Assembly (NCBI GenBank): GCA_964552565.1
Contig: CAZKGL010000001.1
Span: forward strand, 237,113-301,112
DNA from: an uncultured Gammaproteobacteria bacterium
GTDB lineage: Bacteria > Patescibacteriota > Patescibacteriia > UBA9934
DNA: 64,000 bases
Direction of reading: 5' to 3'
Shown here one piece after another: positions 3,177 through 44,579 of the stretch. Numbering within the stretch: position 1 is the first letter of the stretch; each line of letters opens with the position of its first letter. A model generated the notes under the pieces. It was not told where the DNA came from. It was given only the letters and a program-made list of their open reading frames with translations, and did not search any database. The translations under genes were made by a program, and so were the position numbers.

Positions 3177-4094
3177 ATGCAGATGGCCAAGGTCGTCCTC
3201 ATCCAGGAACCGAACCGCCGCAAGGCCGTGCGCGAGGCCGTGCACCAGCTTGGTGACGCGTGGATCGATAAGGTCAAGTCCAGCCGGCGCATCATCGTCA
3301 AGGTGAACCTCGTGCACCACGAGACGCAGCTCGCGTCGACCCACGTCGATGCGGTGCGCGGGCTCCTCGACGAGATCCGCCAGCACAGCCGCGTCGACGT
3401 ATTCGTCGGCGACGCGTCGTACCACGGGACAAAGGCGGCGTTTGCGAATTTCGGTTACGAGCGTCTCATCGAGGAGTACGAGCACACGATCCTCGTCGAC
3501 CTCAACGACGACGATACCGTGCTCGGCCACAGCGTCCGCGCGGACGGCAGCCTGAACGAGATCCGCCGCTCGAGGCTCGCGAGCGAGTGCGACCTCCGTA
3601 TCTCGTTGACGCCCATGAAGACGCACCGCGACGCCGGCATCTCGCTGTCGGTGAAAAACTGGACGCTCGGCACATGGGTCGTCCCACCGCGCGTCGGGAC
3701 GCACGGAAGGGTGTGGGCGCGCTGGCCATGGTTGCACAACGAGGGCATGAAGGCGTTCCATGAGACGGTGACGACGCTGTATGAGGAGTTGCCGTGCCAC
3801 GTCGGCATCGTAGACGGGACCATTGCGATGGAAGGCGACGGGCCGACGCGCGGCGATGCCGTGCAGATGGGCGTCGTGCTCGCCGGCCTCGACGCGGTCG
3901 CGGTCGACGCGGTGGGGGCCACGCTCATGGGGTTCGATCCCGGGGAGATCGGCTATCTGGTAAAATGTAGCGAACGAGGGCTCGGCGTCGCGGAGATGAG
4001 CCGCATCGATGCCCCGCCGCTCGTCCTGGAGCAGTTGCGCCGTTCGTTTTTGCGCCCGCCGGAGTTGGCGGAGAAATTAACTGCTTGGAAATAA
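3177..4094 (+). CDS. DUF362 domain protein
   Basis: MAKVVLIQ start and the THxxAGISLSVKN and DGTIAMEGDGP motifs are typical of DUF362. Confidence 0.6.
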   Translation: MQMAKVVLIQEPNRRKAVREAVHQLGDAWIDKVKSSRRIIVKVNLVHHETQLASTHVDAVRGLLDEIRQHSRVDVFVGDASYHGTKAAFANFGYERLIEEYEHTILVDLNDDDTVLGHSVRADGSLNEIRRSRLASECDLRISLTPMKTHRDAGISLSVKNWTLGTWVVPPRVGTHGRVWARWPWLHNEGMKAFHETVTTLYEELPCHVGIVDGTIAMEGDGPTRGDAVQMGVVLAGLDAVAVDAVGATLMGFDPGEIGYLVKCSERGLGVAEMSRIDAPPLVLEQLRRSFLRPPELAEKLTAWK

Positions 4095-4098: not shown

Positions 4099-4578
4099 AT
4101 GTCTACCTGCATCTTTCCCGGTCGCTTCCAACCGTTCCACGAAGGGCACCTGATGGTCGTCCAGGGGATGGTGAAATCGTGCGGCAACGCCTGCATCGTC
4201 ATTTGTGACGAAGGAAAGGCCGGAGCGGACGCCCCGTTTACGGTCGAGCAGCGCCGCGAGATGATCAGCGCCGCGCTCCTTGCGAAAGACATCATGGACG
4301 CGACCATCGTCGTCGTGAAAGACGGCGGCGAAGACGCCCAGTGGGCGCACCGCGTGCTGGATGAGTGCGGCAACCCGGAGGGTGCGACGGTGTGGAGCGG
4401 ACGCGAAGAGGTCCGCGCGCTGTTCGAAGGCATGGGGGTCGCGACGAAAAAGGTCGTTCCGGTGCCGGGTATTTCGAGCGAGACGATCCGCGAGCAGATG
4501 GTGGCGAACAACCCCGAGTTCCGCAAGCATATCCCGAGCGGCGCTATCGATGTGGTGATGGATGCCATCAAAAAGTAA
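4099..4578 (+). CDS. nadM: Nicotinamide-nucleotide adenylyltransferase, archaeal/NadM type (cytidylyltransferase fold)
   Basis: The N-terminal FPGRFQPFHEGH motif is the (H/T)xGH nucleotidyltransferase signature of NadM-type NMNAT. Confidence 0.7.
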   Translation: MSTCIFPGRFQPFHEGHLMVVQGMVKSCGNACIVICDEGKAGADAPFTVEQRREMISAALLAKDIMDATIVVVKDGGEDAQWAHRVLDECGNPEGATVWSGREEVRALFEGMGVATKKVVPVPGISSETIREQMVANNPEFRKHIPSGAIDVVMDAIKK

Positions 4579-4746: not shown

Positions 4747-5964
4747 TTGCCCATCGACCCCCTCGACCAGCGCTGGACCACCCCCGTCCGCACCACCCTC
4801 GTGCTCGCGGGCGGCGCGCGCACCTGCACGTGCATCGGTCTCACCGACAAGCCGCTCGCCTTCATCGAGGTCGACAGCCCGGACGGCAAGGGCGGCTACC
4901 CGCTCATCGTCGACTGGCGGATGACCAAGGCCGCGTTCGCGCGCGGCGACCACCACATGGTGTTCGCCGGGTACGACAACGTCTACGGCGCCGAACGCGC
5001 GCAGAACGGCCACGCGACGACGTGGGTCGCGCACCAACTCAAGGTGCACGGCGACTGTCGCGAGCTCTTCGCGGGCAGCCTCCTCGAGGCCTACGGCCGT
5101 CCCATCGACGACGCCGAGCGCTTCTACGCGCTGCAGGAGGAGTACGCGCGGGTCTTCGCCGACGGCGTGGATCCGAAGGACTACCCGGTGCACAACGCGG
5201 ACTTCGCCCGTTCGGTCGCGCTCATCCGCACCGCCCGCGGCGTGAAGGGGAGCCGCAAGTACCCCGGTACGGCCTCCGCGCTGCGGCGCATGACGCGCCA
5301 GCTCGTGGCGCTCCACGAGGACAAGGAGCGCGTCGTGCCGCTCGGCGCGGTGCTCGCGAGCTACATCGAGGCGGTGCTGTCGCGCATCATCCGCCACCGC
5401 GCCGCCATCGAGCAGCTCATGGCGCTCGAGCCGAAGAAGCTCCTGACGCCCAACCGTCCGGATCGGCTCAAGGAGCTGCGCGAGGCGCTCAAGGAGATCC
5501 TCGTCGCCCGCCCGTTCCGCCGGAGCCGCGACATGATCGTCGAGGAGCTCGACCAGGTCACCGAGCTCGTCATCTACGCGCTCCACAACCCGAGCGACGA
5601 GGTGCGCACGCACGTCGTCAACCTCTCCCGCAGCATCCTCGGGACGGTGCGCGACGCGCTCCTCCTGCGGGAGCGGCAGTACGAGATCGAGCGTATCCTG
5701 AAGCGCGTCGCGGTCTGGGAACGCTGGGACCAGCGTCCGACGGAGGCGCAGTGGCTCCGGCTGCACCGGGAGATCGACGACGTCCTCGACCGCACGGGGG
5801 CGGGCCTCGGCCACGGTTTCCGCCGCAACCGGGTGCACGAGATCCGCGCGTACCTCGAAGAGGCCCGTTCGGTCTCGCGTACGGTGCGGCAGTTCGAGCC
5901 CGAGCCGTCCCGGCAGCTCGCCGCCATCGGTGCCAAGCTCCGCGCCGTTTCGAAGCTCATCTAG
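4747..5964 (+). CDS. Hypothetical protein (405 aa)
   Basis: Long ORF with normal composition and a TTG start preceded by GAGAGGA. The start is uncertain. The antisense ORF 4702..5838 is Arg-rich junk. Confidence 0.5.
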   Translation: MPIDPLDQRWTTPVRTTLVLAGGARTCTCIGLTDKPLAFIEVDSPDGKGGYPLIVDWRMTKAAFARGDHHMVFAGYDNVYGAERAQNGHATTWVAHQLKVHGDCRELFAGSLLEAYGRPIDDAERFYALQEEYARVFADGVDPKDYPVHNADFARSVALIRTARGVKGSRKYPGTASALRRMTRQLVALHEDKERVVPLGAVLASYIEAVLSRIIRHRAAIEQLMALEPKKLLTPNRPDRLKELREALKEILVARPFRRSRDMIVEELDQVTELVIYALHNPSDEVRTHVVNLSRSILGTVRDALLLRERQYEIERILKRVAVWERWDQRPTEAQWLRLHREIDDVLDRTGAGLGHGFRRNRVHEIRAYLEEARSVSRTVRQFEPEPSRQLAAIGAKLRAVSKLI

Positions 5965-5968
5965 CGCG

Positions 5969-6010
5969 TCGTCATCGCGTCCCGCCCTGGGTTCATGCCT
6001 GGGGCGGGCG
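5969..6010 (+). repeat. Terminator-like repeat, copy 1 (catcgcgtcccgccc(t/g)gggttcatgcctggggcgggcgcttct)
   Basis: About 40 nt near-identical to 7040-7082. GC hairpin CCCGCCCNGG/CCTGGGGCGGG followed by a T-rich tract. Confidence 0.55.
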
Positions 6011-7032
6011 CTTCTGTTCTTGTTGAGCGAACGCGGCTGTGGTTAACTCATGTCGGCCGATTCACGGCAAGTACGACGGAAGGCTCGTCGCCCCGCAACG
6101 GTAGGGCGCCAACAGAGAGGGCCGTGCGTGCGACTCGTCGGCAGGACATGCGTGCCTGCAGCAGGGAGTGTGTGGTGAACCGCTTGCAGAAGATCGTTGA
6201 CAAGACGTCGTATAGCGCGGCCTGCGCGGCATGCAAGGCCGCGAAGGATGTAGGTCTCAACAACGAAAGCGATGTCGCGCTTCGTACGGGCCCGCTGTTC
6301 TTGCTCGTGGGTTGCGCGGTGGTGGCCTTGGGATTCCACGGCATCGAAGACGCCGACATCGCCGCGGTGATGTTGCTGGTCGGGGCCATTTTCGGACTTG
6401 TTGGTCCCATCGTGACGCTCGTTGGCGTGTGGGCAAAGCTTACCGGAGGGCCGCGGCGCTTTGACTTCCTTGTGCCCACGGAGGCTGGGCTCGAGTACCA
6501 CGCGCACCGCGAGAATCCGGTTGCGCACATCAACCTCCTCGCAAAGGGGAAGTGGCACGACGCGGCCATTGTCCTCGAGCTCGAGGGAGAACGCACGCGG
6601 TGCACGCTGCTGCGCGTGGGGTTCGCGGCGCCGTCGTGGAAGCTCTCCCGGGTGTCCGGGAATGCGATCATCCACATGTCGGACGAGTATGGCTGCAGCA
6701 TCGATACGTCGCCGCTGGAGTGCATGCGCATCCTGCTCGCCTACATCGGTTCGGTCGGCCGGATCGTCGACGAGTGCCTTGATGAGGTGCGCAACGACCA
6801 TCGCGTGGGGGTGCTCTCCCGCGGATTGGTCGCGATTGGGCTCCTCACCGGACCGGACCGCAAGTTCAGCATCACCCGCCTGGGTCCGTCGGGACGGATC
6901 GTACACGAACGCGTGCGGCAGACGCTCGCGGCTGCCGGCGACGACGTCGACCCGGCGATCGAAGGGATGGCGGAAGAGGACGCCATCAAGATCCGGGACG
7001 CCTTCAAGGAGTCTCACGGCAAGGCGTTGTAG
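5995..7032 (+). CDS. Hypothetical membrane protein
   Basis: ORF with hydrophobic segments (LFLLVGCAVVALGF, LLVGAIFGLVGPIVTLVGV). The true start is probably internal, for example M at about 6148. Confidence 0.4.
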   Translation: MPGAGASVLVERTRLWLTHVGRFTASTTEGSSPRNGRAPTERAVRATRRQDMRACSRECVVNRLQKIVDKTSYSAACAACKAAKDVGLNNESDVALRTGPLFLLVGCAVVALGFHGIEDADIAAVMLLVGAIFGLVGPIVTLVGVWAKLTGGPRRFDFLVPTEAGLEYHAHRENPVAHINLLAKGKWHDAAIVLELEGERTRCTLLRVGFAAPSWKLSRVSGNAIIHMSDEYGCSIDTSPLECMRILLAYIGSVGRIVDECLDEVRNDHRVGVLSRGLVAIGLLTGPDRKFSITRLGPSGRIVHERVRQTLAAAGDDVDPAIEGMAEEDAIKIRDAFKESHGKAL

Positions 7033-7230: not shown

Positions 7231-9294
7231 ATGGAGTTTTCTCTCCGCTCACAATACCAACCCGCAGGCGACCAGCCGAAGGCGATACAGGAACTCACGG
7301 ACGGCCTCCGCGAGGGTTTGTCGCGCCAAACGCTGCTCGGCGTCACCGGGTCGGGCAAGACGTTCACGATGGCGAACGTCATCCAGCGCGTGCAGAAGCC
7401 GACGCTCGTCATTGCGCATAACAAAACGCTTGCAGCGCAGCTGTGCCAAGAGTTCCGCGAGTTCTTTCCGGAAAACGCGGTCGAGTATTTCGTGAGCTAT
7501 TACGATTACTACCAGCCGGAGGCGTACTTGCCGCGCACCGACACGTACATCGAGAAGGACGCGCAGATCAACGAAGAGATCGACCGCTTGCGCCACGCCG
7601 CGACGCAGGCGCTCCTCACGCGGCGCGACGTCATCATCGTCGCGTCGGTGTCGTGCATCTACGGCCTTGGTTCGCCGGCCGAGTATAGCAAGAGCGGCAT
7701 GCGCATCATGATCGGTGACCCGCTGTCGCGCACCGAACTGCTGCGCCGCCTCGTCGACATGCAGTTCACGCGCACGACGACGGACCTGTCGCGCGGCCAG
7801 TTCCGCGCCCAGGGCGACGTCATCGAACTCATGCCGATGAACGAAGAGGTGTTGTACCGCCTCACCATCGAGGACAATCGCGTGCACGAGATGCTGCTGC
7901 TTGACCACGTCACGCGCATGGTGCGCGAACGGTTGACGCAGATGTGGCTCTTCCCGGCAAAGCACTACATGACCGATGCGCTCAGCCGTGAACGTGCGCT
8001 CCAGGACATCGAGGCCGAGCTCAAGGAGCAGCTTGCGCGGTTTGAGAAGGAGGGCAAAGTGCTCGAGTACGAGCGGTTGTCGCGCCGCACCCGGTACGAC
8101 GTCGAGATGATCCGCAACATCGGGTTCTGCAGCGGCATCGAGAACTACTCGCGCCATTTCGACGGTCGTCGCGAAGGCCAACCGCCGTACACGCTGCTTG
8201 ACTACTTCCCGGACGATTTCCTGACCGTCATCGACGAGTCACACGTCACGCTGCCGCAGATCGGCGGCATGTACGCCGGCGACCAGGCGCGCAAGTCGGT
8301 GCTCGTCGAGCACGGGTTCCGCCTGCCGTCCGCAAAGGACAACCGGCCGCTCCAATTCGATGAGTTCATCGACCGCATCGGCGCGATGGTGTACGTCTCG
8401 GCGACACCGGGGGCGTATGAAGCGACGACATCGCAGAAGGTCGTCGAGCAGATCATCCGCCCGACCGGCCTCGTGGACCCGGAGACCATCGTGCTCCCAG
8501 TGGTCGCGTCCGGCGACTACCCGGGGCAGATCGGCGATCTCATCGTGCGTATTGAAGACCGTATCGGCAAAGGCGAGCGCACGCTCGTGACGACGCTCAC
8601 GAAAAAGATGGCGGAGGACCTCACCGAGTATCTCAAAGAACGGAAGATCAAGGTGGCGTACTTGCACTCCGACGTCGAGACGCTGGAGCGCATCACGGTG
8701 TTGTCCGACTTGCGCAAGGGGACGTACGACGTGGTCGTCGGCGTCAACCTGCTGCGCGAGGGCCTCGACCTGCCGGAGGTATCGCTCATCGGCATCCTCG
8801 ACGCGGACAAGGAAGGGTTCCTGCGCTCCGAGACGTCGCTCATCCAGACCATCGGACGCGCGGCGCGCAACGTCAACGGCCAAGTCGTGCTCTACGCCGA
8901 CCAGATGACCGGGTCGCTCACGCGCGCGCTGAAGGAGACGGAACGCCGCCGCACCTTGCAGCTGGCGTACAACAAGGAGCACGGCATTACGCCGGAGACG
9001 ATTAAGAAAAAGATCGGCGACATCCGCGCCGAGCTCATGAACGAGCGGCCGGGCGACATCCAGCAGGTGCTGAAGATCGAAATGACCGCGTCGGCGAAGG
9101 AGCTGCGCGAAGTCATCGCGGAAAAGAAAGAGGAGATGGCGATGGCGTCGGCGAACCTCTTGTTCGAAACCGCCGCGATCCTCCGCGACGAGATTATTGC
9201 GCTCGAAGCCGAGCTCGCCCAAGAAAAAAAGCGGACCGCCCGCGCCTCCACGAAAGGGAAGCGGGGCGGTACACGGACGAAGACGGCGGGCTAG
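7231..9294 (+). CDS. uvrB: Excinuclease ABC subunit B
   Basis: MEFSLRSQYQPAGDQPKAIQEL, GVTGSGKTF Walker A, full-length helicase domains, C-terminal UvrB/UvrC interaction motif. Confidence 0.95.
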   Translation: MEFSLRSQYQPAGDQPKAIQELTDGLREGLSRQTLLGVTGSGKTFTMANVIQRVQKPTLVIAHNKTLAAQLCQEFREFFPENAVEYFVSYYDYYQPEAYLPRTDTYIEKDAQINEEIDRLRHAATQALLTRRDVIIVASVSCIYGLGSPAEYSKSGMRIMIGDPLSRTELLRRLVDMQFTRTTTDLSRGQFRAQGDVIELMPMNEEVLYRLTIEDNRVHEMLLLDHVTRMVRERLTQMWLFPAKHYMTDALSRERALQDIEAELKEQLARFEKEGKVLEYERLSRRTRYDVEMIRNIGFCSGIENYSRHFDGRREGQPPYTLLDYFPDDFLTVIDESHVTLPQIGGMYAGDQARKSVLVEHGFRLPSAKDNRPLQFDEFIDRIGAMVYVSATPGAYEATTSQKVVEQIIRPTGLVDPETIVLPVVASGDYPGQIGDLIVRIEDRIGKGERTLVTTLTKKMAEDLTEYLKERKIKVAYLHSDVETLERITVLSDLRKGTYDVVVGVNLLREGLDLPEVSLIGILDADKEGFLRSETSLIQTIGRAARNVNGQVVLYADQMTGSLTRALKETERRRTLQLAYNKEHGITPETIKKKIGDIRAELMNERPGDIQQVLKIEMTASAKELREVIAEKKEEMAMASANLLFETAAILRDEIIALEAELAQEKKRTARASTKGKRGGTRTKTAG

Positions 9295-9701
9295 GAGAAC
9301 TTCGGCCGACGCGGCACCTGGCTGGGGCCATCGATCTTGCAGCGCTGAAGGAGCTCCTTCAGCTCACCGGTCGACATGCTCCGCACGGTCGCCTCGTCGG
9401 GGACATCCGTGAGGCGCTTCGCGGCCGTGCCGTTGCCGATGATCTCGAGCATCACGTTCACGAGCTGGTGCTGCGTGAACGCGGCGAAGCTGCCGACCGT
9501 CGGGTCGCGCGACGTCCCTTCCGGGCGGTAGTCCTCGCTCTTCGGCGAATGCTGGCCGGGGATGCGGCGGATGCCCCGACGCATCATCGGGCCCTGGCCG
9601 GCCGGGTCGTTCGGCAGCTGCATGCTGCCGGACGTGGCGCCGGGCGCGGAACGCGGGTCGAGGTCGACGCTGCCGTCGACGCCACCCATGCCGGTGTCCA
9701 T
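9291..9701 (-). CDS. Hypothetical small protein between uvrB and uvrA
   Basis: Minus ORF whose C-terminal half is protein-like ([24 protein letters not shown]). No clear RBS. The start was chosen at MDTGMGG. Confidence 0.3.
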
Positions 9702-9762
9702 GGTGGGATCGCTTGGGTCGGTCGGACGGGTCAAGATACCTCCAAGAGCACATAAACCATAT

Positions 9763-12306
9763 ATGCAAGACCACATCATCGTCAAAGGCGCGCGGGAGCA
9801 CAACCTAAAGAACATCTCCGTGTCCATGCCGCGCAACCAACTCATTTGCATTACCGGGCTTTCCGGTAGCGGGAAGTCGAGTTTGGCGTTCGACACCATT
9901 TTCGCCGAAGGCCAGCGCCGCTACATTGAGTCGCTTTCGGCGTATGCGCGGCAGTTCCTTGGCGCCATGCAAAAACCGGACGTCGACGAGATCGAAGGCC
10001 TGTCGCCCGCGATCTCCATCGACCAGAAGGCGCACAGCCGAAATCCGCGCTCGACGATCGCGACGATCACGGAGATCTACGATTACTTGCGCGTCCTTTT
10101 TGCGCGCATCGGCGAGCCGCACTGCCCGAACTGCAGCACGCGCATCGAAAAGCTCACCGTCGACGAGATGGCGGATATTGTGGTGCGGGAGGCGGGGAAG
10201 CGGGGGGAGAAGAAGGGGAAGAAGTCGAAGCCGGAGGATCGCGAAGTGAGCATCTTGGCCCCGGTCATCCGCGGTCGCAAAGGTGAGTATTATCAATTGC
10301 TGTACGATTTGTATAACAGCGGCTTCGCGAAGGTGCGTATCGACGGCAACATGCACCGCTTGAGCGAAAAGATCAGCCTGTCGCGGTACATGCAGCATAC
10401 GATCGAGGTCGTCGTCGACACGATTCCTGTCGTCGATCTCCGGCAGCCGACGAAGGACACGCGCCAGCGCTTGAGCGAGGCGCTCGAGACCGCCACCGAC
10501 CGCGGCGACGGCGTGGCCGTCATCCTGTACGGCGAACAGGAGGAGCGCACGCTGTCCGCACGGTTCAGCTGCGTGCGGTGCGGGTTCTCGTTTCCCGAAA
10601 TCGAGCCGCGCCTGTTTTCGTTCAACAGCCCGTACGGCGCTTGCCAGGCGTGTTCCGGCCTGGGCACCGTCGACCTGTTTTCGGACGAGGTCTGCCCGAA
10701 GTGCAACGGCATGCGCCTGCGTCCCGAGGCGTTGTACGTGTGGATCGGCGAGCGCAACATCGTCGACGTCACTTCGATGTCGGTCGACGCTGCAGTTGCG
10801 TTTTTCCTTACCCTCGACCTCCAGGAACGGCAGCGCGAGATCGCGAGCACGGTATTGAAGGAGATCGAGGCGCGCTTGAGCTTTCTTTTGGACGTCGGCC
10901 TGCACTACCTGACGCTGAATCGCACTGCGGGCACGCTGTCGGGCGGCGAGGCGCAGCGCATCCGCCTCGCGTCGCAGATCGGCTCGCGGCTCACCGGCGC
11001 GCTCTACGTGCTCGACGAGCCGACCATCGGCTTGCACCAGCGCGACAACGAACGGCTCATCAAGACGCTCGAAGACTTGCGCGACCTCGGCAACACCGTG
11101 CTCGTCGTCGAACACGACGAAGACACGATCCGTCGTTCGGACTACATGGTGGAAATCGGTCCGGGGGCGGGCGTGCACGGCGGCCATGTTGTCGCGGCCG
11201 GCCCGGTGCCGGAGATTTTCAAGGACAAGAAGTCGCGGACGGCGGCGTATCTCCGTGGCGACGCGACGATTCCCGTTCCCGACACACGCCGCACAAAAGA
11301 ATCGGGCGCCATCAAAGTGCGCGGCGCGACCGAAAACAACTTGAAGAACGTCGACATCGACTTCCCGTTGCGGCGTTTCGTGTGCGTGACCGGCGTGTCG
11401 GGCAGCGGCAAGTCGTCGCTGGCGTATGACGTCATGTACAAAGCGGTCGCGAAGAAGTTGTACGGCGGCAAGGACAATCCGGGCAGCCACAAGGCGATCC
11501 TCGGCATCGAGTACATCGACAAGGCGATCCTCATCGACCAGTCCGCGATCGGCCGTACGCCGCGCAGCAACCCGGCGACCTACACCGGCGCGTGGGGCCC
11601 CGTTCGCGACCTGTTTGCGATGACCGAAGAGGCGCGCTTCCGCGGCTACAAGCCGGGGCGCTTCAGCTTCAACGTGCCGGGCGGGCGCTGCGACCATTGC
11701 GAAGGGCACGGCGTCATCGAGATCGAGATGCACTTCCTGCCGACGGTGTACGTGACGTGCGAGGTCTGCAAAGGCAAGCGCTTCAACCGCGAGACGCTCG
11801 AGGTGACATACAAGGAGAAGAACATCGCGCAAGTGCTCGAGATGACTATTGAAGAAGCGGCAACGTTCTTCGTCGACATCCCCGAAATCCACGACAAACT
11901 GAAGGCGCTGAACGACGTCGGCTTGAGCTATGTCACCCTCGGCCAGAGCGCGACGACGCTCTCCGGCGGCGAGGCGCAGCGCGTGAAGCTCGCGGCCGAA
12001 CTCAGCAAGCGCCAGACCGGCAAGACGCTGTATCTGCTTGACGAGCCGACGACCGGGCTCCATTTCGACGACGTCAAAAAGCTCCTTGAGGTGCTCCATT
12101 CGCTCGTCGACAAGGGCAACACGATCGTCGTCATCGAACATAACCTCGACGTCATCAAGACCGCGGACTACATTATCGACATGGGCCCCGAGGGCGGCGA
12201 CCAGGGCGGCACCGTCGTCGCGACCGGCACGCCGGAAGAAATTGCGCGCCGCGCGGACAGCCACACGGCGAAATACCTGCGGCCGATGCTGAAGAACAAA
12301 CGTTAG
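9763..12306 (+). CDS. uvrA: Excinuclease ABC subunit A
   Basis: [20 protein letters not shown], two ABC ATPase modules, zinc fingers CPNCSTRI and CEVCKGKRF. Confidence 0.95.
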
Positions 12307-12480: not shown

Positions 12481-12509
12481 TTGACGCGACGGCGTTTCGG
12501 TGCTAACCT
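12481..12509 (+). promoter_or_regulatory. Promoter TTGACG-17-TAACCT (TGc extended)
   Basis: Lies in an AT-richer intergenic region upstream of the 12597 gene. Confidence 0.35.
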
Positions 12510-12596
12510 GCACCGTTCCTTTCCTCCATCGGCGCGAGGCCTCGGGAGCTCTCAAAAGGGTTCCTGGGGCCTCGTTCTGAAGGAGGATGGAATCGC

Positions 12597-13316
12597 ATGC
12601 CCGAAGAGATCCCGATCGACGTCATGGGGGCGCTGCGCAAGGCGCCGCTCGTCGAGTTCACCCGGCACGGCCACGCCGACTACCCGGAGTACGGCCTGGC
12701 CTGCGGCCACGCCGGCGGACGGATGGTGTTCGCGCGCTACCGGTCCGGACGCATCGTGCTCGGCACGCTCGAGGCGAAGGAGGAGGTGCGCTTCATCAAC
12801 GGCGTCGGGCTTGGCGACCTCGTCGCCAAGGCGTACGACGACCCGCGTCGTCACGACGACTGGGTCCGCATCGAGTACCTCGACCCCGAGGACCAGGAGC
12901 GCGTCATCCGCCAGGTCGCCGACTTCAGCGCGTGGCGCGCTGCGGAGTTCGTGAAGTACGCGACCTTCAACGGCGCGCGCCGCATCGCGCGGAACGCTGC
13001 GCTGCCGGTCATCGTGCGCATCGCGGCTTACCCGAAGATCCGCACGCCCCGGCTGCGCGCGAAGCTCGAGGCGCTCGTCCACTCGAGCGCCTGGCCCGAG
13101 GGCGAGGCGCGGCACGAGTACATGGTTGGCGCGGCGGTCGTCGCGCTGGCGCAGATCCGCGCCGGGCAGCCGCTGACCGACCCGGATGCGCTGCCGGTCA
13201 TCGTGCAGCAGCAGATCGCGCTCAACGCGGCGGGCACGTACAAGCTTTTCGACGGCTCGTGGATGACGGAAGTCCGGGCGCTCCACGAAGCGGCGGGCGA
13301 CACGGGTATCGAGTGA
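12597..13316 (+). CDS. Hypothetical protein (239 aa)
   Basis: GGAGG RBS (gaaGGAGGatggaatcgcATG). No recognisable domain. Confidence 0.55.
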   Translation: MPEEIPIDVMGALRKAPLVEFTRHGHADYPEYGLACGHAGGRMVFARYRSGRIVLGTLEAKEEVRFINGVGLGDLVAKAYDDPRRHDDWVRIEYLDPEDQERVIRQVADFSAWRAAEFVKYATFNGARRIARNAALPVIVRIAAYPKIRTPRLRAKLEALVHSSAWPEGEARHEYMVGAAVVALAQIRAGQPLTDPDALPVIVQQQIALNAAGTYKLFDGSWMTEVRALHEAAGDTGIE

Positions 13317-13444
13317 ACGTCGGGGGTGCGGGGTTCGGGTCCATGCCCGACCTCGTACCCTCGCGAGACCAAAGATTCGAAGACCGCTTCGGTGCTTTGG
13401 CCTCGCCTGGACCAGATAGAAAGGCGCAGGGTAAGGAGGCGATC

Positions 13445-13597
13445 ATGACCCAGAAGGACAAGCTCGTGCCCACGGTGTGCCGTGGCCCCGAAGCGATTCG
13501 TGCGACGCCGCAGCCGCCGCCGAAGGGGTGCGAGCCGAAGGGATGTACGCGCGTGGGGTGCGGCCTCCGACGAGGCGTGAAGCGCGACGTCATGTAG
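13445..13597 (+). CDS. Small Cys-rich peptide (50 aa), pattern C-x16-C-x4-C-x4-C
   Basis: Strong RBS AAGGAGG 5 nt upstream. High GC3. Sequence MTQKDKLVPTVCRGPEAIRATPQPPPKGCEPKGCTRVGCGLRRGVKRDVM. It lies in a long open frame (12587..13597), so it could be spurious. Confidence 0.35.
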   Translation: MTQKDKLVPTVCRGPEAIRATPQPPPKGCEPKGCTRVGCGLRRGVKRDVM

Positions 13598-13743
13598 CGG
13601 AGGACGTTGCAGGCGCGAGGGAAGGCAATGCCTCCCTCGCGCCGCGAGACCGGACTGCTGAACCTGTTTCAGCCGCGCGGTCTCGCTGAGACGTTGGCGA
13701 GGAAATCACCAGTGTGTGGTCACCAAAGGGAGGGTATCGATCC

Positions 13744-14010
13744 ATGGTCAATCAATCCGTCGCGTCCCGTCGGGGGGACATCCAACACCGCGTGATCGAG
13801 GTCATGAACGGGTTCCGCAGCCCGGACGTCACCCGGTCGGTCACGCTCGAGGATGCGATCATCGACGTCGTCAACGATTCGATGGACTGGGTGGAGGCGT
13901 GCATGGATCTCGAGCAGCAGTTCAAGGTCACGCTCGAGATCGGCGACTACTACGAGAAGCGGAGGCCGATCCGCGACATCGTCGACGCGATCATGCAGGC
14001 CAACGCGTAG
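13744..14010 (+). CDS. Acyl carrier protein-like phosphopantetheine-binding protein (orphan)
   Basis: The DSMDWVEACMDLEQQFKVTLEI...IRDIVDAIMQ region matches the ACP helix II DSL motif and the helix III/IV pattern. GGAGG RBS 10 nt upstream. Confidence 0.6.
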   Translation: MVNQSVASRRGDIQHRVIEVMNGFRSPDVTRSVTLEDAIIDVVNDSMDWVEACMDLEQQFKVTLEIGDYYEKRRPIRDIVDAIMQANA

Positions 14011-14161
14011 GGCCGGGGTGCGGGGCAGGATGGGGTTCGCCCGTCCGCTCCGCACCCTCGCCAAGCATCTTTTTTTGTTTTAGGGTGCCTTGTTCAAAAA
14101 CTGACGATCGGCAGATTTTGAGCAGTTGCATGTGCCGTCTCTTTTCGGCAAACTGGAACGC

Positions 14162-15505
14162 ATGGTACGCGCAGATATTGTCATTAAAAACGGAGGCCTG
14201 CCCGACAATCCTGGGGTCTACTTTTATTACGACAAGAACGGCACGCTGCTGTACATCGGCAAGGCGACGAGTCTGCGGAAGCGTGTCGGGTCATACTTTG
14301 TGAAGGCGCACGACGCGCGCATCGAAGACCTTGTGCGCACCATTGCGCGTATCGAGTACATCGAGACGCCGACGGTCATCGAGGCGCTCGTGCTTGAGGC
14401 GAACCAGATCAAGAAGCACCAGCCGCCGTACAACGTCATGCAGCGGGACGACAAGAGCTTCTTGTACCTGTGCATCACGAATGAAGACTTTCCGAAGCCC
14501 GTGCTTTTGCGCGGCTTCGATCTCGAGCGCATGGGCATCAAGCCGTTCTCGCGGACGCTTTCGCTTGCGGCGCGCCGGAAGTTTCTTGGCGTCTACGGCC
14601 CCTACATCAGCGGCCGGTCGCTGCGCACCGCGCTTGAGCTCGTTCGGAAGTCGATTCCTTGGTCAACCTGCGCGCCCGGCCAGAACCGTCCGTGTTTTGA
14701 TGCGCAAATTGGGAAGTGCCCGGGCGTGTGCGTCGGTGTCGTATCCAAAAACGCATACCGCAAAACGATGCGCCAGCTCATGCTGTTCTTTTCCGGCAAG
14801 AAGGACCAACTGCTGCGCCAGCTGACGCGCGAGATGCAGCGTGCCGCAAAAGCGGGAAGGTTCGAAGAGGCCGCGAAACTGCGCGACCGTGTCTTTGCGC
14901 TCGAACACATTAAAGACATTTCGCTCATCACCCGTGAAGAGGAGGATTTGCGCGCGAAATGGCGCAGCGATAACGCGGTGCGCCCGTTCATCGACATCGA
15001 CGGGCGTATTGAGGCGTACGACATCGCGCATCTTTCCGGCACGTCGAACGTCGCGTCGATGGTCGTGTTTGAGGGTGGCCGCCCGAGCAAGAGCCAGTAC
15101 CGCCGGTTCCGCATCAAAGGGTTTGAGGGCGCGAACGATGTCGCCGCGATGGAGGAGGTGATTCGCCGTCGTGTCAAACGGAACGTGGTGACGCCGAATG
15201 CTTGGCCGCTGCCGGAGCTGATGGTGATCGATGGCGGCGAGTTGCAGGTGGCAGCGGCGCAGCACGTACTCGACGAACTCGGCGTGAAGGTGCCGGTCGT
15301 CGGCATTGCAAAGGGCGTTGACCGGAAACAGGATCGTTTGGTGTATGACGAGTCGGATGCAGAGTTGAAACGCGTCGTCACGAGTTTTAAAACCGTGCTG
15401 CAGGCCGCGCGCGACGAAGCGCACCGGTTTGCCGGGGCGTATCATCGCGTGCTCCGCAGCAAGCGCTCGCTGGGCATTTCGCCGATCAAAAAGAAGCGCG
15501 CATAA
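14162..15505 (+). CDS. uvrC: Excinuclease ABC subunit C, short form (447 aa) lacking the C-terminal HhH region
   Basis: GIY-YIG N-terminus (GVYFYYDKNGTLLYIGKATSLRKRVGSYF), UvrBC-interaction region and RNase H-like endonuclease domain. Ends at SKRSLGISPIKKKRA. Confidence 0.9.
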   Translation: MVRADIVIKNGGLPDNPGVYFYYDKNGTLLYIGKATSLRKRVGSYFVKAHDARIEDLVRTIARIEYIETPTVIEALVLEANQIKKHQPPYNVMQRDDKSFLYLCITNEDFPKPVLLRGFDLERMGIKPFSRTLSLAARRKFLGVYGPYISGRSLRTALELVRKSIPWSTCAPGQNRPCFDAQIGKCPGVCVGVVSKNAYRKTMRQLMLFFSGKKDQLLRQLTREMQRAAKAGRFEEAAKLRDRVFALEHIKDISLITREEEDLRAKWRSDNAVRPFIDIDGRIEAYDIAHLSGTSNVASMVVFEGGRPSKSQYRRFRIKGFEGANDVAAMEEVIRRRVKRNVVTPNAWPLPELMVIDGGELQVAAAQHVLDELGVKVPVVGIAKGVDRKQDRLVYDESDAELKRVVTSFKTVLQAARDEAHRFAGAYHRVLRSKRSLGISPIKKKRA

Positions 15506-15563: not shown

Positions 15564-15872
15564 CTAGTGCGGAGGGTTGTTGCAGTCCTCGACGGCTTCG
15601 TCGAACGACCAGCCCTCGTTGCGGACGCGGTAGCTGACGCACGCCCGAGTCTTGCTCGACTCAGTGGAGCTGGTGAGCCAGGCGCTGAAGGCGGCATCTT
15701 CTTCCGGGACGAGCATCCCGTCCTCGTCGAGGAACGGGAGGCGATCCGCGCCGCCATCGGCGGTGGTGCCGTCGGCGTCGTGGTCGGGTTGCGTGGGGCA
15801 GGCGGCCAGGGTGCTGCCGAGGACGGTTCCCATGAACGCGATGAGCAGGAAGGAGCGGAGAAGCGAGGACAA
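15564..15872 (-). CDS. Small secreted lipoprotein (hypothetical)
   Basis: TTG start 7 nt after GGAGG. Lipoprotein signal peptide MSSLLRSFLLIAFMGTVLGSTLAAC with LAAC lipobox. Convergent with uvrC. Confidence 0.4.
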   Translation of the reverse strand: MSSLLRSFLLIAFMGTVLGSTLAACPTQPDHDADGTTADGGADRLPFLDEDGMLVPEEDAAFSAWLTSSTESSKTRACVSYRVRNEGWSFDEAVEDCNNPPH

Positions 15873-16037
15873 GACGGGGCCTCCGGAGTGCGCATACAGG
15901 ATACTGCTTCCACGTGAAAATGCAACGTCCGGTGGGGAATCGATGTCGGGAACGTTTATGCACAAGAACAAACGCCGAACGCGTTTTTTGTTTTGTGCCA
16001 GCGGAAAACTTCGTCGTGAGCAATTTGGAACGTTGTG

Positions 16038-40337: not shown

Positions 40338-43300
40338 ATGTCAGAAATCACAGCGCGCGTCGCCCCCCAGGCGGCGTCGGAAGGTCAGATTGCAGGTGCG
40401 GTTTGGCAGTTTATGACCTCGGTCAAAGAAGTGAAAAAACGCGACGGAGCAAGCCAGGCGTTTTCCGCTGACAAGCTTCGTGCGTCCGTCGAGAAGGCGC
40501 TCGCCGCAGCCGGGCAGAACAATGCCGACGCCTATGCCGGCCGCATCACGTCGCAGGTCGTGTCCCGCCTGACGCGCCAGTTTGACGGACACCGCGTTCC
40601 GACCACGTCGGAGATCCGCGAAGTCGTGTCCGTTGCCATCATCGACAACAACCTGATCCACGTCGCGAAGGCGTACATGGGGTTCAAGGCGCGGACGGAG
40701 GCTGCGGTGCCGGGCGAGAAGTACGGCAAGGGCCTTCCGTTCAGCCGCTACTTTACGAAGGACGGCGTGGCGCCGTACGCCATGCTCGAGTGGGAGAAGC
40801 GCAGCGCGGTCATCACGAACGAGAAGGGCAAGGTCGTGTTCGAACAGCACGACATCGAGGTTCCGAAGGGGTGGTCGCAGACCGCCACGAACATCGTCGC
40901 CCAGAAGTATTTCCGCGGGAAGGTCGGCACGCCGGAGCGCGAGACGTCCATGAAGCAGCTCATCGACCGCGTGGCCAAGACCATGGCGAACTGGGGCCGC
41001 AAGGACGGTTATTTCGCGACGAAAGAGGATGCGCAGGTTTTTGAAGATGAACTGACGTGGATTCTCATTAACCAGATGGCCGCGTTCAACAGCCCGGTCT
41101 GGTTCAATGTGGGCATTAATCCGCACCCGCAGTGTTCCGCGTGCTTCATCAACTCCGTGCAGGACGACATGCGTTCGATTTTGAACCTCGCGGTCACGGA
41201 AAGCATGCTCTTCAAGCAGGGCTCGGGCACGGGCAGCAACCTCTCCAAGCTCCGCTCGTCGCAGGAATACCTCGGCGGCAGCAACGGCAAGTCGTCCGGC
41301 CCCGTATCGTTCATGAAGGGCCTCGATGCCTTCGCGGGCATCGTCAAGAGCGGCGGCAAGACGCGCCGCGCGGCGAAGATGGTCATCTTGAACGTCGACC
41401 ATCCCGATGTCATGCAGTTCATCGAGTGCAAGGCGAAGGAGGAGCGGAAGGCCTGGACGCTGGTCGACGCCGGCTACGACAGCAGCATGGACGGCGAGGC
41501 GTACTCGAGTATTTTCTTCCAGAACGCGAACAACTCGGTGCGCGTGACGGATGGCTTCATGCGTGCGGTGGAGAAGGACGAGGAGTGGGTGACGAAGGAG
41601 ATTACGACCGGTAAGGATTCGCTGAAGTACAAGGCGCGCGACCTTTTCCGCGCCATGGCCGAGGCGGCGTGGCAGTGCGGCGACCCGGGCATCCAGTACG
41701 ACACGACCGTGAACCTCTGGCACACGAGCAAGAATACGGACCGCATCAACGCGTCGAACCCGTGCTCGGAATACATGTTCCTCGACGACACCGCCTGCAA
41801 CCTTTCGTCGCTCAACCTCATGAAGTTCCGCAAGGAAGCAAACGGCGTCATGGAGTTCGACGTGGAGGCGTTCACGAAGGCGTCGGAGGTCATGATTACC
41901 GCGATGGAGATCACGGTCGGCAACTCGAGCTACCCGACGCCGGCCATCGAGCAGAACAGCCACGACTTCCGCCCGCTCGGTATCGGCTACGCGAACTTGG
42001 GCGCGCTCCTCATGAGCCGGGGCCTTGCATACGACTCGGACGAGGGACGCAACCTCGCCGCCGCGATTACCGCGCTCCTTTCGGGCGCGACCTATGCGCA
42101 GTCGGCGCGCATCGCCGAGAAGATCGGCGCGTTCTCGGCCTTTGCCGTGAACCGCGAGCCGTGCATGGGCGTCATGGAGATGCACCGCCGCGCGTCCTAC
42201 GAGATGGCGCCCGCGGGCGTCCCGGCAGACCTCATGGCGGCGGCGAAGAAGAGCTGGGACGAGGTCGTCGACCGCGGCTACCAGCACGGGCTGCGTAACG
42301 CGCAGATTTCGGTCATCGCCCCGACCGGCACCATTTCGTTCCTCATGGATTGCGACACGACCGGCATCGAGCCGGACATCGCGCTCGTGAAGTACAAGTG
42401 GCTTGTGGGCGGCGGCATGCTGAAAATCGTGAACAATACCGTCCCGGAGGCGCTGACCCGCCTTGGCTACGGCGAGGCGGAGTGCAAGGATATCCTCGCC
42501 TACATCGACGAGAAGGACACCATTGAAGGCGCCCCGCACCTGAAGCCGGAGCACGTCGGCGTGTTTGACTGCGCGTTCAAGGCGAAGAACGGGACGCGCA
42601 CCATCCACCACATGGCGCACATCAACATGATGGCCGCGGTGCAGCCGTTCGTGTCCGGGGCCATCTCGAAGACGGTCAACATGCCGAACGAGGCGACGGT
42701 CGAAGATATCATGGACGTCTACATGAAGGGCTGGAAGCTCGGCTTGAAGGCGATCGCCATCTACCGCGACGGCAGCAAGCGCCAACAGGCACTTACCACG
42801 TCGAAAGAAAAAGACTCTGCGAAGGCGAATGCGAAAGAACTAGGCGGGGCCACCGCGCCCCGCCCGGAAGAGAAGAAGGATGAAACGGTCGCCGCGGCGA
42901 TCGAAACCGTAAAGGTGCAGGTGAACCCCGCAACCGCGTCGCGCCGCCGCCGCTTGCCGGACGAGCGCCGCGCCCTCACGCACAAGTTTGCGATCGGCAG
43001 CCACGAGGGCTATATCACCATCGGCCTCTACGACGACGGGACGCCGGGCGAGCTCTTCGTCACCATGTCGAAGGAAGGTTCGGTCATCAGCGGCCTCATG
43101 GATGCGTTCTCGACCAGCGTGTCGATTGGCCTGCAATACGGCGTGCCGCTCCACGTGCTCGTGAACAAGTTCGCGCACATGCGCTTTGAGCCGTCGGGCT
43201 TCACGAACAATCCCAACATCCGCATCGCGAAGTCCATCATCGACTACATCTTCCGCTACCTCGCCATGAAGTTCCTCCCGGTCGATGCACAGCTCCAGGT

Positions 43301-43601
43301 CGGCATCAACGTCGTCGAGACGCATGGCAATGACATAGGCGGGGTCACCGCGCCCCGCCAGGAAACGGTCGTGCAGCCGATCACCGACGCACAGCCGACG
43401 ATCTTCGCCTCACCGCTCGCGACCGACACGAACCCCGTCATGTCGCCGGGCACTGCGCCCGCGAAGACGACGCCCGGCCTCACGGCGACGTTCGACAACC
43501 AGTCGGACGCCCCGACGTGCGACACGTGCGGCAGCATGATGGTCCGCAACGCCGCGTGCTACAAGTGCCTGAATTGTGGGAGTACGAGTGGATGCAGTTA
43601 A
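40338..43601 (+). CDS. nrdJ: Ribonucleotide reductase class II (adenosylcobalamin-dependent), with N-terminal ATP cone and C-terminal zinc ribbon
   Basis: ATP cone, NPCSEY active-site motif, C-terminal CDTCGSMMVRNAACYKCLNC. Two REP-variant palindromes are embedded in-frame (42843-42864 and 43338-43359). Confidence 0.9.
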   Translation: MSEITARVAPQAASEGQIAGAVWQFMTSVKEVKKRDGASQAFSADKLRASVEKALAAAGQNNADAYAGRITSQVVSRLTRQFDGHRVPTTSEIREVVSVAIIDNNLIHVAKAYMGFKARTEAAVPGEKYGKGLPFSRYFTKDGVAPYAMLEWEKRSAVITNEKGKVVFEQHDIEVPKGWSQTATNIVAQKYFRGKVGTPERETSMKQLIDRVAKTMANWGRKDGYFATKEDAQVFEDELTWILINQMAAFNSPVWFNVGINPHPQCSACFINSVQDDMRSILNLAVTESMLFKQGSGTGSNLSKLRSSQEYLGGSNGKSSGPVSFMKGLDAFAGIVKSGGKTRRAAKMVILNVDHPDVMQFIECKAKEERKAWTLVDAGYDSSMDGEAYSSIFFQNANNSVRVTDGFMRAVEKDEEWVTKEITTGKDSLKYKARDLFRAMAEAAWQCGDPGIQYDTTVNLWHTSKNTDRINASNPCSEYMFLDDTACNLSSLNLMKFRKEANGVMEFDVEAFTKASEVMITAMEITVGNSSYPTPAIEQNSHDFRPLGIGYANLGALLMSRGLAYDSDEGRNLAAAITALLSGATYAQSARIAEKIGAFSAFAVNREPCMGVMEMHRRASYEMAPAGVPADLMAAAKKSWDEVVDRGYQHGLRNAQISVIAPTGTISFLMDCDTTGIEPDIALVKYKWLVGGGMLKIVNNTVPEALTRLGYGEAECKDILAYIDEKDTIEGAPHLKPEHVGVFDCAFKAKNGTRTIHHMAHINMMAAVQPFVSGAISKTVNMPNEATVEDIMDVYMKGWKLGLKAIAIYRDGSKRQQALTTSKEKDSAKANAKELGGATAPRPEEKKDETVAAAIETVKVQVNPATASRRRRLPDERRALTHKFAIGSHEGYITIGLYDDGTPGELFVTMSKEGSVISGLMDAFSTSVSIGLQYGVPLHVLVNKFAHMRFEPSGFTNNPNIRIAKSIIDYIFRYLAMKFLPVDAQLQVGINVVETHGNDIGGVTAPRQETVVQPITDAQPTIFASPLATDTNPVMSPGTAPAKTTPGLTATFDNQSDAPTCDTCGSMMVRNAACYKCLNCGSTSGCS

Positions 43602-43610: not shown

Positions 43611-43640
43611 CATAGACGGGGTCCCCGCACCCCGTCTATG
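43611..43640 (+). repeat. REP palindrome, copy 1 (catagacggggtccccgcaccccgtctatg)
   Basis: Perfect 10-bp stem ATAGACGGGG/CCCCGTCTAT with loop TCCCCGCA. Confidence 0.8.
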
Positions 43641-43650: not shown

Positions 43651-44049
43651 ATGCGCCAAATCACCAAGCGTCTCCTACCAGGACAGGATCTTCGCGATGA
43701 AATCGAGAAGGTCGTCCATGACCATGATGTGAAAGCAGGAGTTCTGCTTTCCATCGTCGGATGTCTTACGTCCTTACGGCTTCGCGTCGCTGACGGGGTG
43801 ACGGTCAAGGAATGGAGCGAGAAGTTTGAAATCGTATCCGGCACCGGGACGGTATCGGTCAACGATAGCCACATCCATATCGCGGCCGCAAACCAGGAGG
43901 GCATGACGATTGGCGGGCATCTTAAACAGGGCTGCATCGTGGGAACGACGGTAGAGCTCGTGGTTCTTGCGTTCGATGACATTGCATATGTTCGCGAACC
44001 GGATGCTGCGACCGGATACGATGAGCTCGTTATCCGCGAAAAACCATAG
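43651..44049 (+). CDS. PPC/DUF296 domain protein (PD1-like DNA-binding)
   Basis: DUF296 fold pattern (IHIAAANQEGMTIGGHL...GTTVELVVLAFDD). The stop codon lies inside REP copy 2. Confidence 0.55.
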   Translation: MRQITKRLLPGQDLRDEIEKVVHDHDVKAGVLLSIVGCLTSLRLRVADGVTVKEWSEKFEIVSGTGTVSVNDSHIHIAAANQEGMTIGGHLKQGCIVGTTVELVVLAFDDIAYVREPDAATGYDELVIREKP

Positions 44050-44075
44050 ACGGGGGTCCCCGCACCCCGTCTATG
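44045..44075 (+). repeat. REP palindrome, copy 2
   Basis: catagacgggggtccccgcaccccgtctatg. Confidence 0.8.
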
Positions 44076-44082
44076 CTGTTCT

Positions 44083-44553: not shown

Positions 44554-44579
44554 AGGCGGGGTGCGGGACCCCGCCTATG
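44552..44579 (-). repeat. REP palindrome, copy 4 (inverted), spanning the RAYT stop and the ATG of the next gene
   Basis: aaaggcggggtgcgggaccccgcctATGa. Confidence 0.7.

Follow-up and report, generated by a model that had tools for sequence, protein, structure and literature searches.

The interval between uvrA and uvrC in a 64-kb stretch of DNA (hereafter the window) from an uncultured bacterium encodes three consecutive open reading frames (ORFs) on the forward strand, termed here hyp239, pep50 and ACP88 in that order, and the last of these is, judging by its sequence, a genuine, highly divergent member of the carrier-protein superfamily. The host belongs to Candidatus Uhrbacteria (candidate phyla radiation, CPR, or Patescibacteria) according to its UvrC, which is 75% identical to the proteins from Uhrbacteria metagenome-assembled genomes (MAGs). 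The interpretation that we favour, with modest confidence, sees in them a rapidly evolving accessory operon specific to the lineage, which occupies a variable chromosomal slot, is controlled at the level of mRNA structure, and includes a divergent but probably functional carrier protein as one of its cargoes.

ACP88 (88 aa; 13744-14010, plus strand, preceded by GGGAGGG at 13728-13734, ~9 nt before the start) contains DSMDWVEACMDLEQQF...IRDIVDAI and is acidic (computed isoelectric point, pI, 4.56); its putative phosphopantetheine site is Ser46, in the context D45-S46-M47-D48. Its assignment is based on consistent sub-threshold matches to acyl carrier proteins (ACPs) in four libraries (Pfam, NCBIfam, PHROGs and PDB). 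The Pfam PP-binding family PF00550 covers residues 45-83 only, at 17.8 bits, short of the gathering score of 20.8; the NCBIfam ACP models reach 14-25 bits against cut-offs of 66-146 (25.2 vs 71 for the best). The best-scoring family of any library is PHROG 5934 'acyl carrier protein' (30.3 bits, E 7e-7), in which residues 15-84 of ACP88 are aligned to profile positions 17-85 of 93. A phmmer search of the PDB returned 71 matches with E <= 10, nearly all of them acyl or D-alanyl carrier proteins; the best one (E 2e-4) aligns residues 8-85 with residues 2-78 of an ACP, and among the best are also mitochondrial ACP subunits of large complexes. In both printed PDB alignments whose chain keeps the serine (NSLD and DSLD), Ser46 falls on the serine position of the ACP. 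The AlphaFold2 (AF2) model calculated from the single sequence comprises four helices (predicted local distance difference test, pLDDT, 66), with the second long helix starting from residue 49. The original prediction, made from the DNA alone, had spoken of a clear carrier signature: the ACP-like character and the serine motif stand, but the word "clear" does not, as all the matches remain below cut-off, and the similarity to PF00550 is likewise seen, but under its threshold. A search among 5.8 billion proteins retrieved no relative of ACP88 with E <= 0.001 apart from the query itself, and it is therefore not a conserved housekeeping acpP.

Inspection of the sequence that precedes uvrC in the nearest relatives brought a second ACP-like gene to light. 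In Uhrbacteria LJ_bin-3226 (locus L005) an ORF at 3419-3703, directly before uvrC, encodes a 94-aa protein that contains LDSVDTAELAILCEQRFG, has a pI of 4.62 and keeps the serine motif as DSVD; all 15 of its 15 PDB matches are carrier proteins, and in NCBIfam it matches the ACP AmcB with 22.6 bits (cut-off 80). An identical protein is encoded on at least ten contigs from several samples, always in the order recJ, ACP-like gene, uvrC, and in L005 and L211-L214 the gene stands alone between recJ and uvrC, without hyp239 or the peptide. Yet another contig (L004) opens with the coding sequence for an orthologue's C-terminus. Apart from the L005 protein, which is 22% identical to ACP88, we found no ACP88 orthologue in the Uhrbacteria loci with 63-84% UvrC identity. 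The two proteins have little in common beyond the DSxD motif and helix II, and direct homology between them is at best marginal (phmmer detects none and BLASTP gives a marginal E-value of 0.029 over 25 residues); we nonetheless regard them as putative orthologues on the grounds of where they lie and of the ACP features they have in common. When both sequences were combined in one profile, the number of PDB matches with E <= 1 rose from 30 to 107 and the best E-value improved from 2e-4 to 7.7e-5, with the best 60 of the 107 matches all being carrier proteins. The parts that survived the divergence correspond to the region recognized by phosphopantetheinyl transferases (PPTases) and partner enzymes, which we consider the strongest argument that both proteins are functional carriers and that the location of the ACP-like gene beside uvrC is ancestral in this sub-clade. 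The L005 gene is preceded by a promoter-like TTGACG-N17-TAATCT (read by eye) and followed by a hairpin with a T-run.

The first gene of the operon, hyp239, encodes a 239-aa cytoplasmic protein with no match in Pfam, NCBIfam, PADLOC, PHROG or PDB. An exhaustive HMMER search of 1.84 billion representatives identified three homologues (P0003, 41% identity, E 8e-36; P0004, 35%, E 1e-22; P0005, 29%, E 3e-10), while the index of 5.8 billion proteins yielded the query only, and a family profile brought no further members. The family thus comprises four members in ~15 billion proteins, each with its gene just after uvrA. Across the family, none of the residues that might suggest catalysis (Cys, His, Ser or Asp) is invariant, and the AF2 model of hyp239 (pLDDT 40.6) is unusable. 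In the closest relative, locus L081, which carries P0003, UvrC is 84% identical and the hyp239 homologue only ~40%; it is followed there, in place of pep50 and the ACP, by unrelated 141-aa and 159-aa ORFans (5293-5718 and 5846-6325), both single-member clusters. In the 141-aa protein we observed only a faint HEAT-repeat signal (E 0.068). In L083 the hyp239 homologue is accompanied by still other ORFans with no family match (917-1273, and 184-789 on the minus strand).

Analysis of the gene neighborhood across 40 Uhrbacteria loci reveals that the order uvrB-uvrA-uvrC-mraZ is conserved, with a gap between uvrA and uvrC that ranges from an overlap to several kb, and that in some relatives the 10 kb preceding uvrC contain no uvrA. 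What occupies the gap is unrelated between genomes, the commonest occupant being an M23 peptidase, and the closest MAGs have contig breaks at this slot. Because L081 has a different cargo, and L005 and L211-L214 have the ACP-like gene by itself, hyp239, pep50 and ACP88 are, from these comparisons, not a co-inherited unit but tenants of a variable slot. In the closest MAGs, inverted repeats of ~20-25 nt flank a segment of ~120-170 bp between the ACP-like gene and uvrC (L005 3770-3945; L004 150-390; L002 1-126 and 9799-10003; L003 9658-9755; L006 9608-9689). This segment is reversed at the start of L002, recurs elsewhere in L002, and also occurs close to or at the ends of contigs; it resembles a MITE-like (miniature inverted-repeat transposable element) repeat or an invertible segment, and probably explains the assembly breaks just upstream of uvrC in several MAGs.

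All three ORFs were found at the positions between uvrA and uvrC at which the original prediction had placed them, and codon usage supports all three as coding. Besides ACP88, they comprise hyp239 at 12597-13316 (plus strand; AAGGAGG at 12580-12586, 10 nt before the ATG) and pep50 at 13445-13597 (plus strand, 50 aa; AAGGAGG at 13433-13439, 5 nt before the ATG). They are flanked by uvrA (ORF 9562-12306), the probable true start of which is at 9760, because its homologues align from residue 67 onward only, and by uvrC (14126-15505). The GC content of this segment (70-74%) exceeds that of its flanks and the 63% of the whole window, while its codon preferences are those of the host. We scored codons with log-odds trained on 26 window genes with Pfam support. 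Over stretches of 50 codons, known genes reach 0.58 +/- 0.27, and the off-frame stretches have their 95th percentile at 0.18. On this scale hyp239 scores 0.73, ACP88 0.71 and pep50 0.29 per codon, each being the top-scoring among its own six frames, and in ACP88 the ATG start (88 aa) outscores the GTG start (98 aa). Spurious ORFs of the kind that arise in high-GC DNA were considered and ruled out by the codon scores, the ribosome-binding sites and the homologues.

The peptide encoded by pep50 (5.4 kDa) is basic (pI 9.95) and has cysteines at positions 12, 29, 34 and 39; the spacing C-x16-C-x4-C-x4-C and the AAGGAGG 5 nt upstream are as originally described. The locus was also correctly judged to be an orphan one: ACP88 matches only itself, and pep50 forms a single-member cluster (by an exact-sequence look-up, with no homology search made). 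No Pfam, NCBIfam, PADLOC or PHROG family matches pep50, and no homologue is present in any fetched locus. It is called as a protein in the NCBI record and not called by the gene caller of the Logan contig. Its codon score exceeds the off-frame 95th percentile, although it is the weakest of the three, and together with the ribosome-binding site and the complete set of flanking hairpins described below, this favours its being translated. A 15-nt tandem duplication within pep50 (13519-13545; GCCGAAGGGGTG / GCCGAAGGGATG) yields PKGCE/PKGCT, and therefore two of the four cysteines appear to stem from a recent internal duplication.

This operon also has a series of conserved stem-loops bracketing every cistron, which were absent from the original prediction. 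In the window and in L081 a hairpin termed here hp1 (GGGTGCGGGG...CCYCGCACCC) follows every stop codon, and between cistrons a second hairpin, hp2, comes after hp1 and ahead of the Shine-Dalgarno sequence and start codon of the gene that follows. The consensus of hp2 is CGAGACC-AAAG-AU-UCGAAG-loop-CUUCGG-UG-CUUU-GGUCUCG. We built two covariance models, R1 for hp2 and R2 for hp1. Directly after the hyp239 stop codon lies hp1a, a GC-rich stem-loop (13322-13362; R2, 47.6 bits on the plus and 24.7 on the minus strand), followed by hp2a, an 18-bp stem-loop with a conserved 2x2 internal loop (13359-13410; R1, 69.8 and 38.2 bits on the plus and minus strand, respectively), located 23 nt ahead of the Shine-Dalgarno sequence of pep50. 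The stop codon of pep50 is followed by the diverged GC-rich stem-loop hp1b (13609-13646), weakly matched by R2 (17.9 bits on the plus and 19.7 on the minus strand) and recognizable as a strong hairpin within the fold of 13598-13746 (-72.7 kcal/mol, z = -4.1); hp2b, the second copy of hp2 (13640-13690), precedes the ACP88 Shine-Dalgarno sequence and matches R1 with 58.3 bits (35.7 on the minus strand), partly by construction, being among the four sequences from which R1 was built. The array ends, on the plus strand before uvrC, with hp1c (14014-14059; R2, 61.3 bits; fold -52.2 kcal/mol, z = -6.0) and the T-run TTTTTTTGTTTT (T7GT4, 14070-14081), which together are the probable operon terminator.

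According to RNAalifold, 5 of the 18 pairs of hp2 (four copies) and 5 of the 19 pairs of hp1 exhibit compensatory changes, and many pairs in hp1 are G-U. The window and L081 agree in all 19 nt of the hp1/hp2 junction CCTCGTACCCTCGCGAGAC, and their hp1a-hp2a spacers are 76.5% identical, a level equal to that of uvrA/uvrC (75%) and above that of the hyp239 coding sequence (61%). Plus-strand model scores are roughly twice those of the minus strand and G-U pairs are frequent, which argues that the elements act as RNA rather than as double-stranded or bottom-strand DNA. Elsewhere in the 64 kb and in 594 kb of Uhrbacteria loci R1 and R2 score at most 20 bits, the weak additional matches being confined to the hyp239 leader, the P0003 leader and the diverged hp1b. 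Rfam contains no family for these elements and gave only chance hairpin-like matches below threshold. A pattern search with the left arm of hp2 retrieved at least 120 stretches in metagenomes, none of those listed containing the right arm, and 7 stretches in viral contigs; these were dismissed as chance matches.

Upstream of hyp239 the plus strand carries a promoter-like TTGACG-N17-TAACCT (12481-12509), read from the sequence and with a weak -10 hexamer, followed by a structured 5' leader (12510-12596). A motif of the same kind, TTGAC[GC]-N17-TA..CT, precedes the homologous genes in L081 and L082 as well as the ACP-like gene in L005, and we propose that 12481-12509 may be the operon promoter. 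In the leader a long hairpin is predicted, where CCUUUCCUCCAUC on the upstream side forms pairs with GAAGGAGGAUGG, the Shine-Dalgarno region of hyp239, a CCUCC-containing strand being paired with GGAGG; its fold (-60.5 kcal/mol) is far more stable than those of shuffled sequences (-31.1 +/- 3.4; z = -8.7). Structured leaders of the same kind are found in L081 and L082, and the hp2 model matches them weakly in the window (15.9 bits at 12530-12579) and with 20 bits in L081. The hp1/hp2 pair and the Shine-Dalgarno-sequestering leader are candidate new cis-regulatory RNA motifs, found so far in three loci.

On these grounds we propose the following scheme for the accessory operon. A single transcript would probably run from near 12510 to the hairpin and T-run at 14014-14081 and would contain three cistrons, each composed of an hp2 stem-loop, a Shine-Dalgarno sequence, an ORF and an hp1 stem-loop. 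The leader hairpin would sequester the first ribosome-binding site, so that expression may be set post-transcriptionally by mRNA structure; hp1 may serve as a 3' stabilizer or partial terminator, and hp2 as a processing or protein-binding site, by analogy to the RNase III sites between phage T7 cistrons. For ACP88, the most likely role is that of a carrier whose Ser46 bears a phosphopantetheine arm and which serves an accessory pathway, not housekeeping fatty-acid synthesis, with its loading and modifying enzymes presumably encoded elsewhere in the genome, while hyp239 and pep50 would be co-expressed neighbours and not obligate partners of the carrier.

Several observations weigh against this scheme. 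None of the ACP matches of ACP88 reaches its curated family cut-off, and a Foldseek search of the PDB with the pLDDT-66 model, which is too imprecise to decide the matter, returned no match with E <= 0.001, the ACP chains appearing with template modelling (TM) scores of ~0.33-0.36 amid unrelated helical proteins. Among the ~55 ORFs scanned across the window, which covers 64 kb of a contig of 838,942 bp, there is no PPTase (ACPS family), and CPR bacteria are reported to lack ACP synthase in general (PMC7242380). The proposed co-transcription and RNA processing, the phosphopantetheinylation of ACP88 and the translation of pep50 are deduced from the sequence, and neither hyp239 nor pep50 has an assignable function. 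The hairpin models comprise 4 and 6 copies from three loci, which makes the covariation counts small, and their scores of 48-70 bits on the training copies (window, L081 and L082) are matches to their own training sequences by construction. The T-run begins 7 nt past the hp1c stem, which is non-canonical. Both the promoter-like motif and the terminal hairpin with its T-run went uncalled by the consensus scanner, which in the latter case is explained by this 7-nt distance; the elements equivalent to hp1c in L081 and L005 have T-runs in the canonical position.

The remaining ORFs of the window offer no partner for the carrier. The ~55 ORFs scanned encode proteins of DNA repair, cell division, glycolysis, nucleotide-sugar metabolism, chaperones and other housekeeping functions, and among them we found no AMP-dependent ligase, ketosynthase, acyltransferase, fatty acid synthase (FAS), non-ribosomal peptide synthetase or polyketide synthase (NRPS/PKS), or Dlt protein, nor any fab, plsX or acpS gene; the earlier statement that no FAS, NRPS/PKS or Dlt genes lie nearby is thus borne out for these ~55 ORFs. 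CoaD was considered for the ORF at 4099-4575 and rejected, as this 159-aa cytidylyltransferase-like protein resembles nicotinamide mononucleotide (NMN) adenylyltransferase instead. The operon includes no radical-SAM (S-adenosylmethionine), YcaO or Lan enzyme, and no maturase of ribosomally synthesized and post-translationally modified peptides (RiPPs) is encoded near it; the one radical-SAM gene of the 64 kb lies at 51656-53095, at a distance of 38 kb. CPR bacteria have been reported to be without FAS and ACP-processing enzymes (PMC7242380), and horizontal acquisition of acpP by Patescibacteria has been reported (PMC12455944). The best ACP model of ACP88 is from a phage family; nonetheless, phage origin was rejected as the main explanation, as tblastn against 50,697 phage genomes gave no significant match and IMG/VR contained no relatives. 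A defence system was rejected as well, because the three window proteins, the three hyp239 homologues and the cargo proteins of L081 and L083 have no PADLOC match with E <= 1.

The original prediction had suggested that the carrier and the Cys-rich peptide might belong to one system. In such a self-contained arrangement, an acyl or aminoacyl group borne by ACP88 would be transferred to pep50 or used in its maturation, with hyp239 as an enzyme or scaffold. The cistrons are indeed adjacent and on the same strand, separated by hairpins alone and followed by one terminal terminator-like element, pep50 is Cys-rich like many RiPP precursors, ACP88 retains the carrier serine, and an enzymatic role of hyp239 is conceivable since it has no assignable function. 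The genes are not inherited together, however, given the unrelated 141-aa and 159-aa ORFans behind the hyp239 homologue of L081 and the solitary ACP-like gene between recJ and uvrC in L005 and L211-L214; the hyp239 family lacks an invariant Cys, His, Ser or Asp, pep50 has no family match and no relative in any fetched locus, and no modifying enzyme lies in the operon, nor an adenylating enzyme, PPTase or RiPP maturase in it or next to it. The idea of one system thus finds no support in these comparisons, and we consider its self-contained version very unlikely. The peptide could also be removed from the picture altogether, if pep50 were a chance ORF in a GC-rich spacer or an upstream ORF with a regulatory role, its translation serving only to modulate hp1b/hp2b and thereby the expression of ACP88. 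Its coding score is the weakest of the three (0.29 per codon), it was not called on the Logan contig, it shows the same lack of families and relatives, and hp1b begins 12 nt past its stop codon, near enough for a ribosome that terminates there to extend to the stem's 5' edge. We regard this as quite unlikely in view of the AAGGAGG at 5 nt, the best score of six frames, above the off-frame 95th percentile, the call in the NCBI record, the length of 50 codons, which is long for an attenuator leader, and the fact that pep50 sits in a complete hp2-Shine-Dalgarno-ORF-hp1 unit, equivalent to the L081 units that encode the 141-aa and 159-aa proteins.

Mitochondrial ACP scaffolds LYR proteins, and ACP88 may accordingly have kept the ACP fold without acting as a carrier, for instance as a protein-interaction scaffold, an inhibitor or a decoy that evolves rapidly through conflict or host interaction. 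This would fit the family scores below cut-off, the 22% identity to the L005 copy at 75% UvrC identity, the location among ORFans in a hypervariable slot, the mitochondrial subunits among the best PDB matches, and the reported lack of ACP synthase and FAS in CPR bacteria. The divergent copies, however, keep D-S-x-D and the helix II surface, as recognition by a PPTase and partner enzymes predicts, and the mitochondrial scaffolding ACPs are themselves acylated holo-proteins; we think that the non-carrier interpretation is unlikely, yet worth keeping in view. The hairpins invite another explanation, in which the hp2-Shine-Dalgarno-ORF-hp1 units are mobile cassettes and the stem-loops are single-stranded DNA recombination sites, attC-like or related to repetitive extragenic palindromic (REP) sequences and REP-associated tyrosine transposases (RAYTs). 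The same conserved hairpins bracket different cargo in the window and L081, the slot is variable, with contig breaks in the closest MAGs, and the window encodes a RAYT (44083-44550) whose REP contains an 11-mer, GGGGTGCGGGG, that is also present in hp1 in the opposite orientation. On the other hand, no integrase or recombinase was found in or next to the locus, the unit boundaries lack attC R/L boxes and the GTTRRRY core, the hairpins are always on the sense strand and are placed exactly between the stop codon and the Shine-Dalgarno sequence, the many G-U pairs and the much lower scores of the opposite strand are as expected for RNA, the REP flanking the RAYT is a different 28-30-nt sequence, and the 64 kb contain no more copies of hp1 or hp2. 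Mobile cassettes of this kind are highly improbable. A broader proposal, namely that some Uhrbacteria keep beside uvrA and uvrC arrays of small, rapidly diverging genes in hitherto undescribed modular hp2-Shine-Dalgarno-ORF-hp1 units, for the dedicated expression, processing or exchange of interchangeable cargo, including an orphan phosphopantetheine carrier in an organism believed to be without lipid synthesis and ACP-processing enzymes, is speculative, and we would give it a rather small chance of being right.

Comparison with known systems reveals both similarities and differences. Like the AcpP-type ACPs of bacterial type II FAS and of mitochondria, ACP88 is a small acidic protein (~80-90 aa) with four (predicted) helices and a D-S-(L/M)-D motif at the start of helix II, and it aligns along its full length to the solved structures; its helix II pattern DSMDWVEACMDLEQQF closely follows DSLDTVELVMALEEEF of E. 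coli. Unlike housekeeping AcpP, which ranks with the best-conserved proteins of bacteria, ACP88 falls under every curated cut-off and is without relatives at E <= 0.001 in a set of 5.8 billion proteins. Its locus also differs from that of the FAS II acpP, as it is a variable slot between uvrA and uvrC without fab, pls or acpS neighbours. Phage ACPs (PHROG 5934, moron or auxiliary metabolic genes) resemble ACP88 in being stand-alone proteins in an accessory context, but ACP88 adjoins no phage genes and has the codon usage of its host. The free-standing carriers of secondary metabolism, which are small stand-alone proteins working with enzymes in trans, provided the best matches of the L005 protein (the cispentacin ACP AmcB and PDB 6lk3, 'putative free-standing ACP'), although its score is far under the cut-off (22.6 vs 80 bits); no biosynthetic enzymes are encoded near ACP88 or the L005 ACP-like gene. 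As for pep50, it has neither the adjacent maturase nor the precursor family that characterizes RiPP precursors such as SCIFF/ranthipeptides, lanthipeptides and thiopeptides.

Among RNA elements, phage T7 RNase III sites and the stabilizers formed by REP sequences and bacterial interspersed mosaic elements (BIMEs) are likewise stable hairpins between cistrons of one operon. Here, hp2 comprises ~18 bp with a conserved internal loop, and hp1 directly follows the stop codons like 3' stabilizers; unlike those elements, hp1 and hp2 have no Rfam family and are confined to this locus type. 5' untranslated regions (UTRs) that sequester the Shine-Dalgarno sequence are typical for RNA thermometers and riboswitch expression platforms. 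The 12510-12596 leader likewise pairs a CCUCC strand with GGAGG, but it is far more stable (-60 kcal/mol) than RNA thermometers, has no Rfam match, and lacks a recognizable ligand-binding architecture of the riboswitch type. In contrast to integron cassettes, each unit has two different hairpins, not one attC, and the ORFs scanned include no integrase; in contrast to REP/BIME elements associated with a RAYT, hp1 and hp2 are not dispersed, and the REP flanking the RAYT of the window is a different sequence in 3-4 copies. This RAYT (NCBIfam, 97.4 bits, cut-off 80) is encoded close to 28-30-nt REP-like palindromes (ATAGACGGGGTCCCCGCACCCCGTCTAT) at 43612-43639, ~44048-44076 and 44363-44390 (minus strand), with a further one at 56877-56904; two of them flank a PCC-domain gene neighbouring the RAYT.

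Further observations concern the surroundings of the operon. If uvrA starts at 9760, the uvrB-uvrA spacer (9295-9760) spans ~465 nt with a GC content of 69-71%, and the corresponding gaps of relatives are likewise 500-650 nt. An antisense ORF at 9291-9899, in which the N-terminal ~46 aa are conserved, was rejected as a shadow of the uvrA N-terminus. The gap between uvrC and mraZ is a second variable slot, ranging from ~200 bp to ~4 kb among relatives (L002-L037); in the window it contains a 135-aa ORFan (15564-15971, minus strand) with no family match and no homologue in the fetched loci. Within 13 kb of one another are three B12-linked genes, namely a class II (B12-dependent) ribonucleotide reductase (40338-43601), a corrinoid adenosyltransferase (44577-45176) and the B12-binding radical-SAM enzyme (51656-53095), whose subfamily is unassigned and whose gene has a GC content at third codon positions (GC3) of 0.92.

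ORFan clusters are common in CPR genomes, and if none of these interpretations held, the locus would be one more such cluster in a variable slot, ordinary for this group. On the evidence of its sequence, ACP88 is a new, very divergent variant of carrier proteins. That a carrier whose serine motif is intact has been retained in two strongly diverged versions at the same chromosomal position suggests an unrecognized phosphopantetheine-dependent accessory function in CPR episymbionts, which is noteworthy because CPR/Patescibacteria are thought to be without fatty-acid synthesis and ACP-processing machinery. The candidate RNA motifs would, in turn, concern a phylum whose gene regulation is almost unstudied, and ACP88 is a concrete target for the question of whether CPR bacteria have any PPTase.

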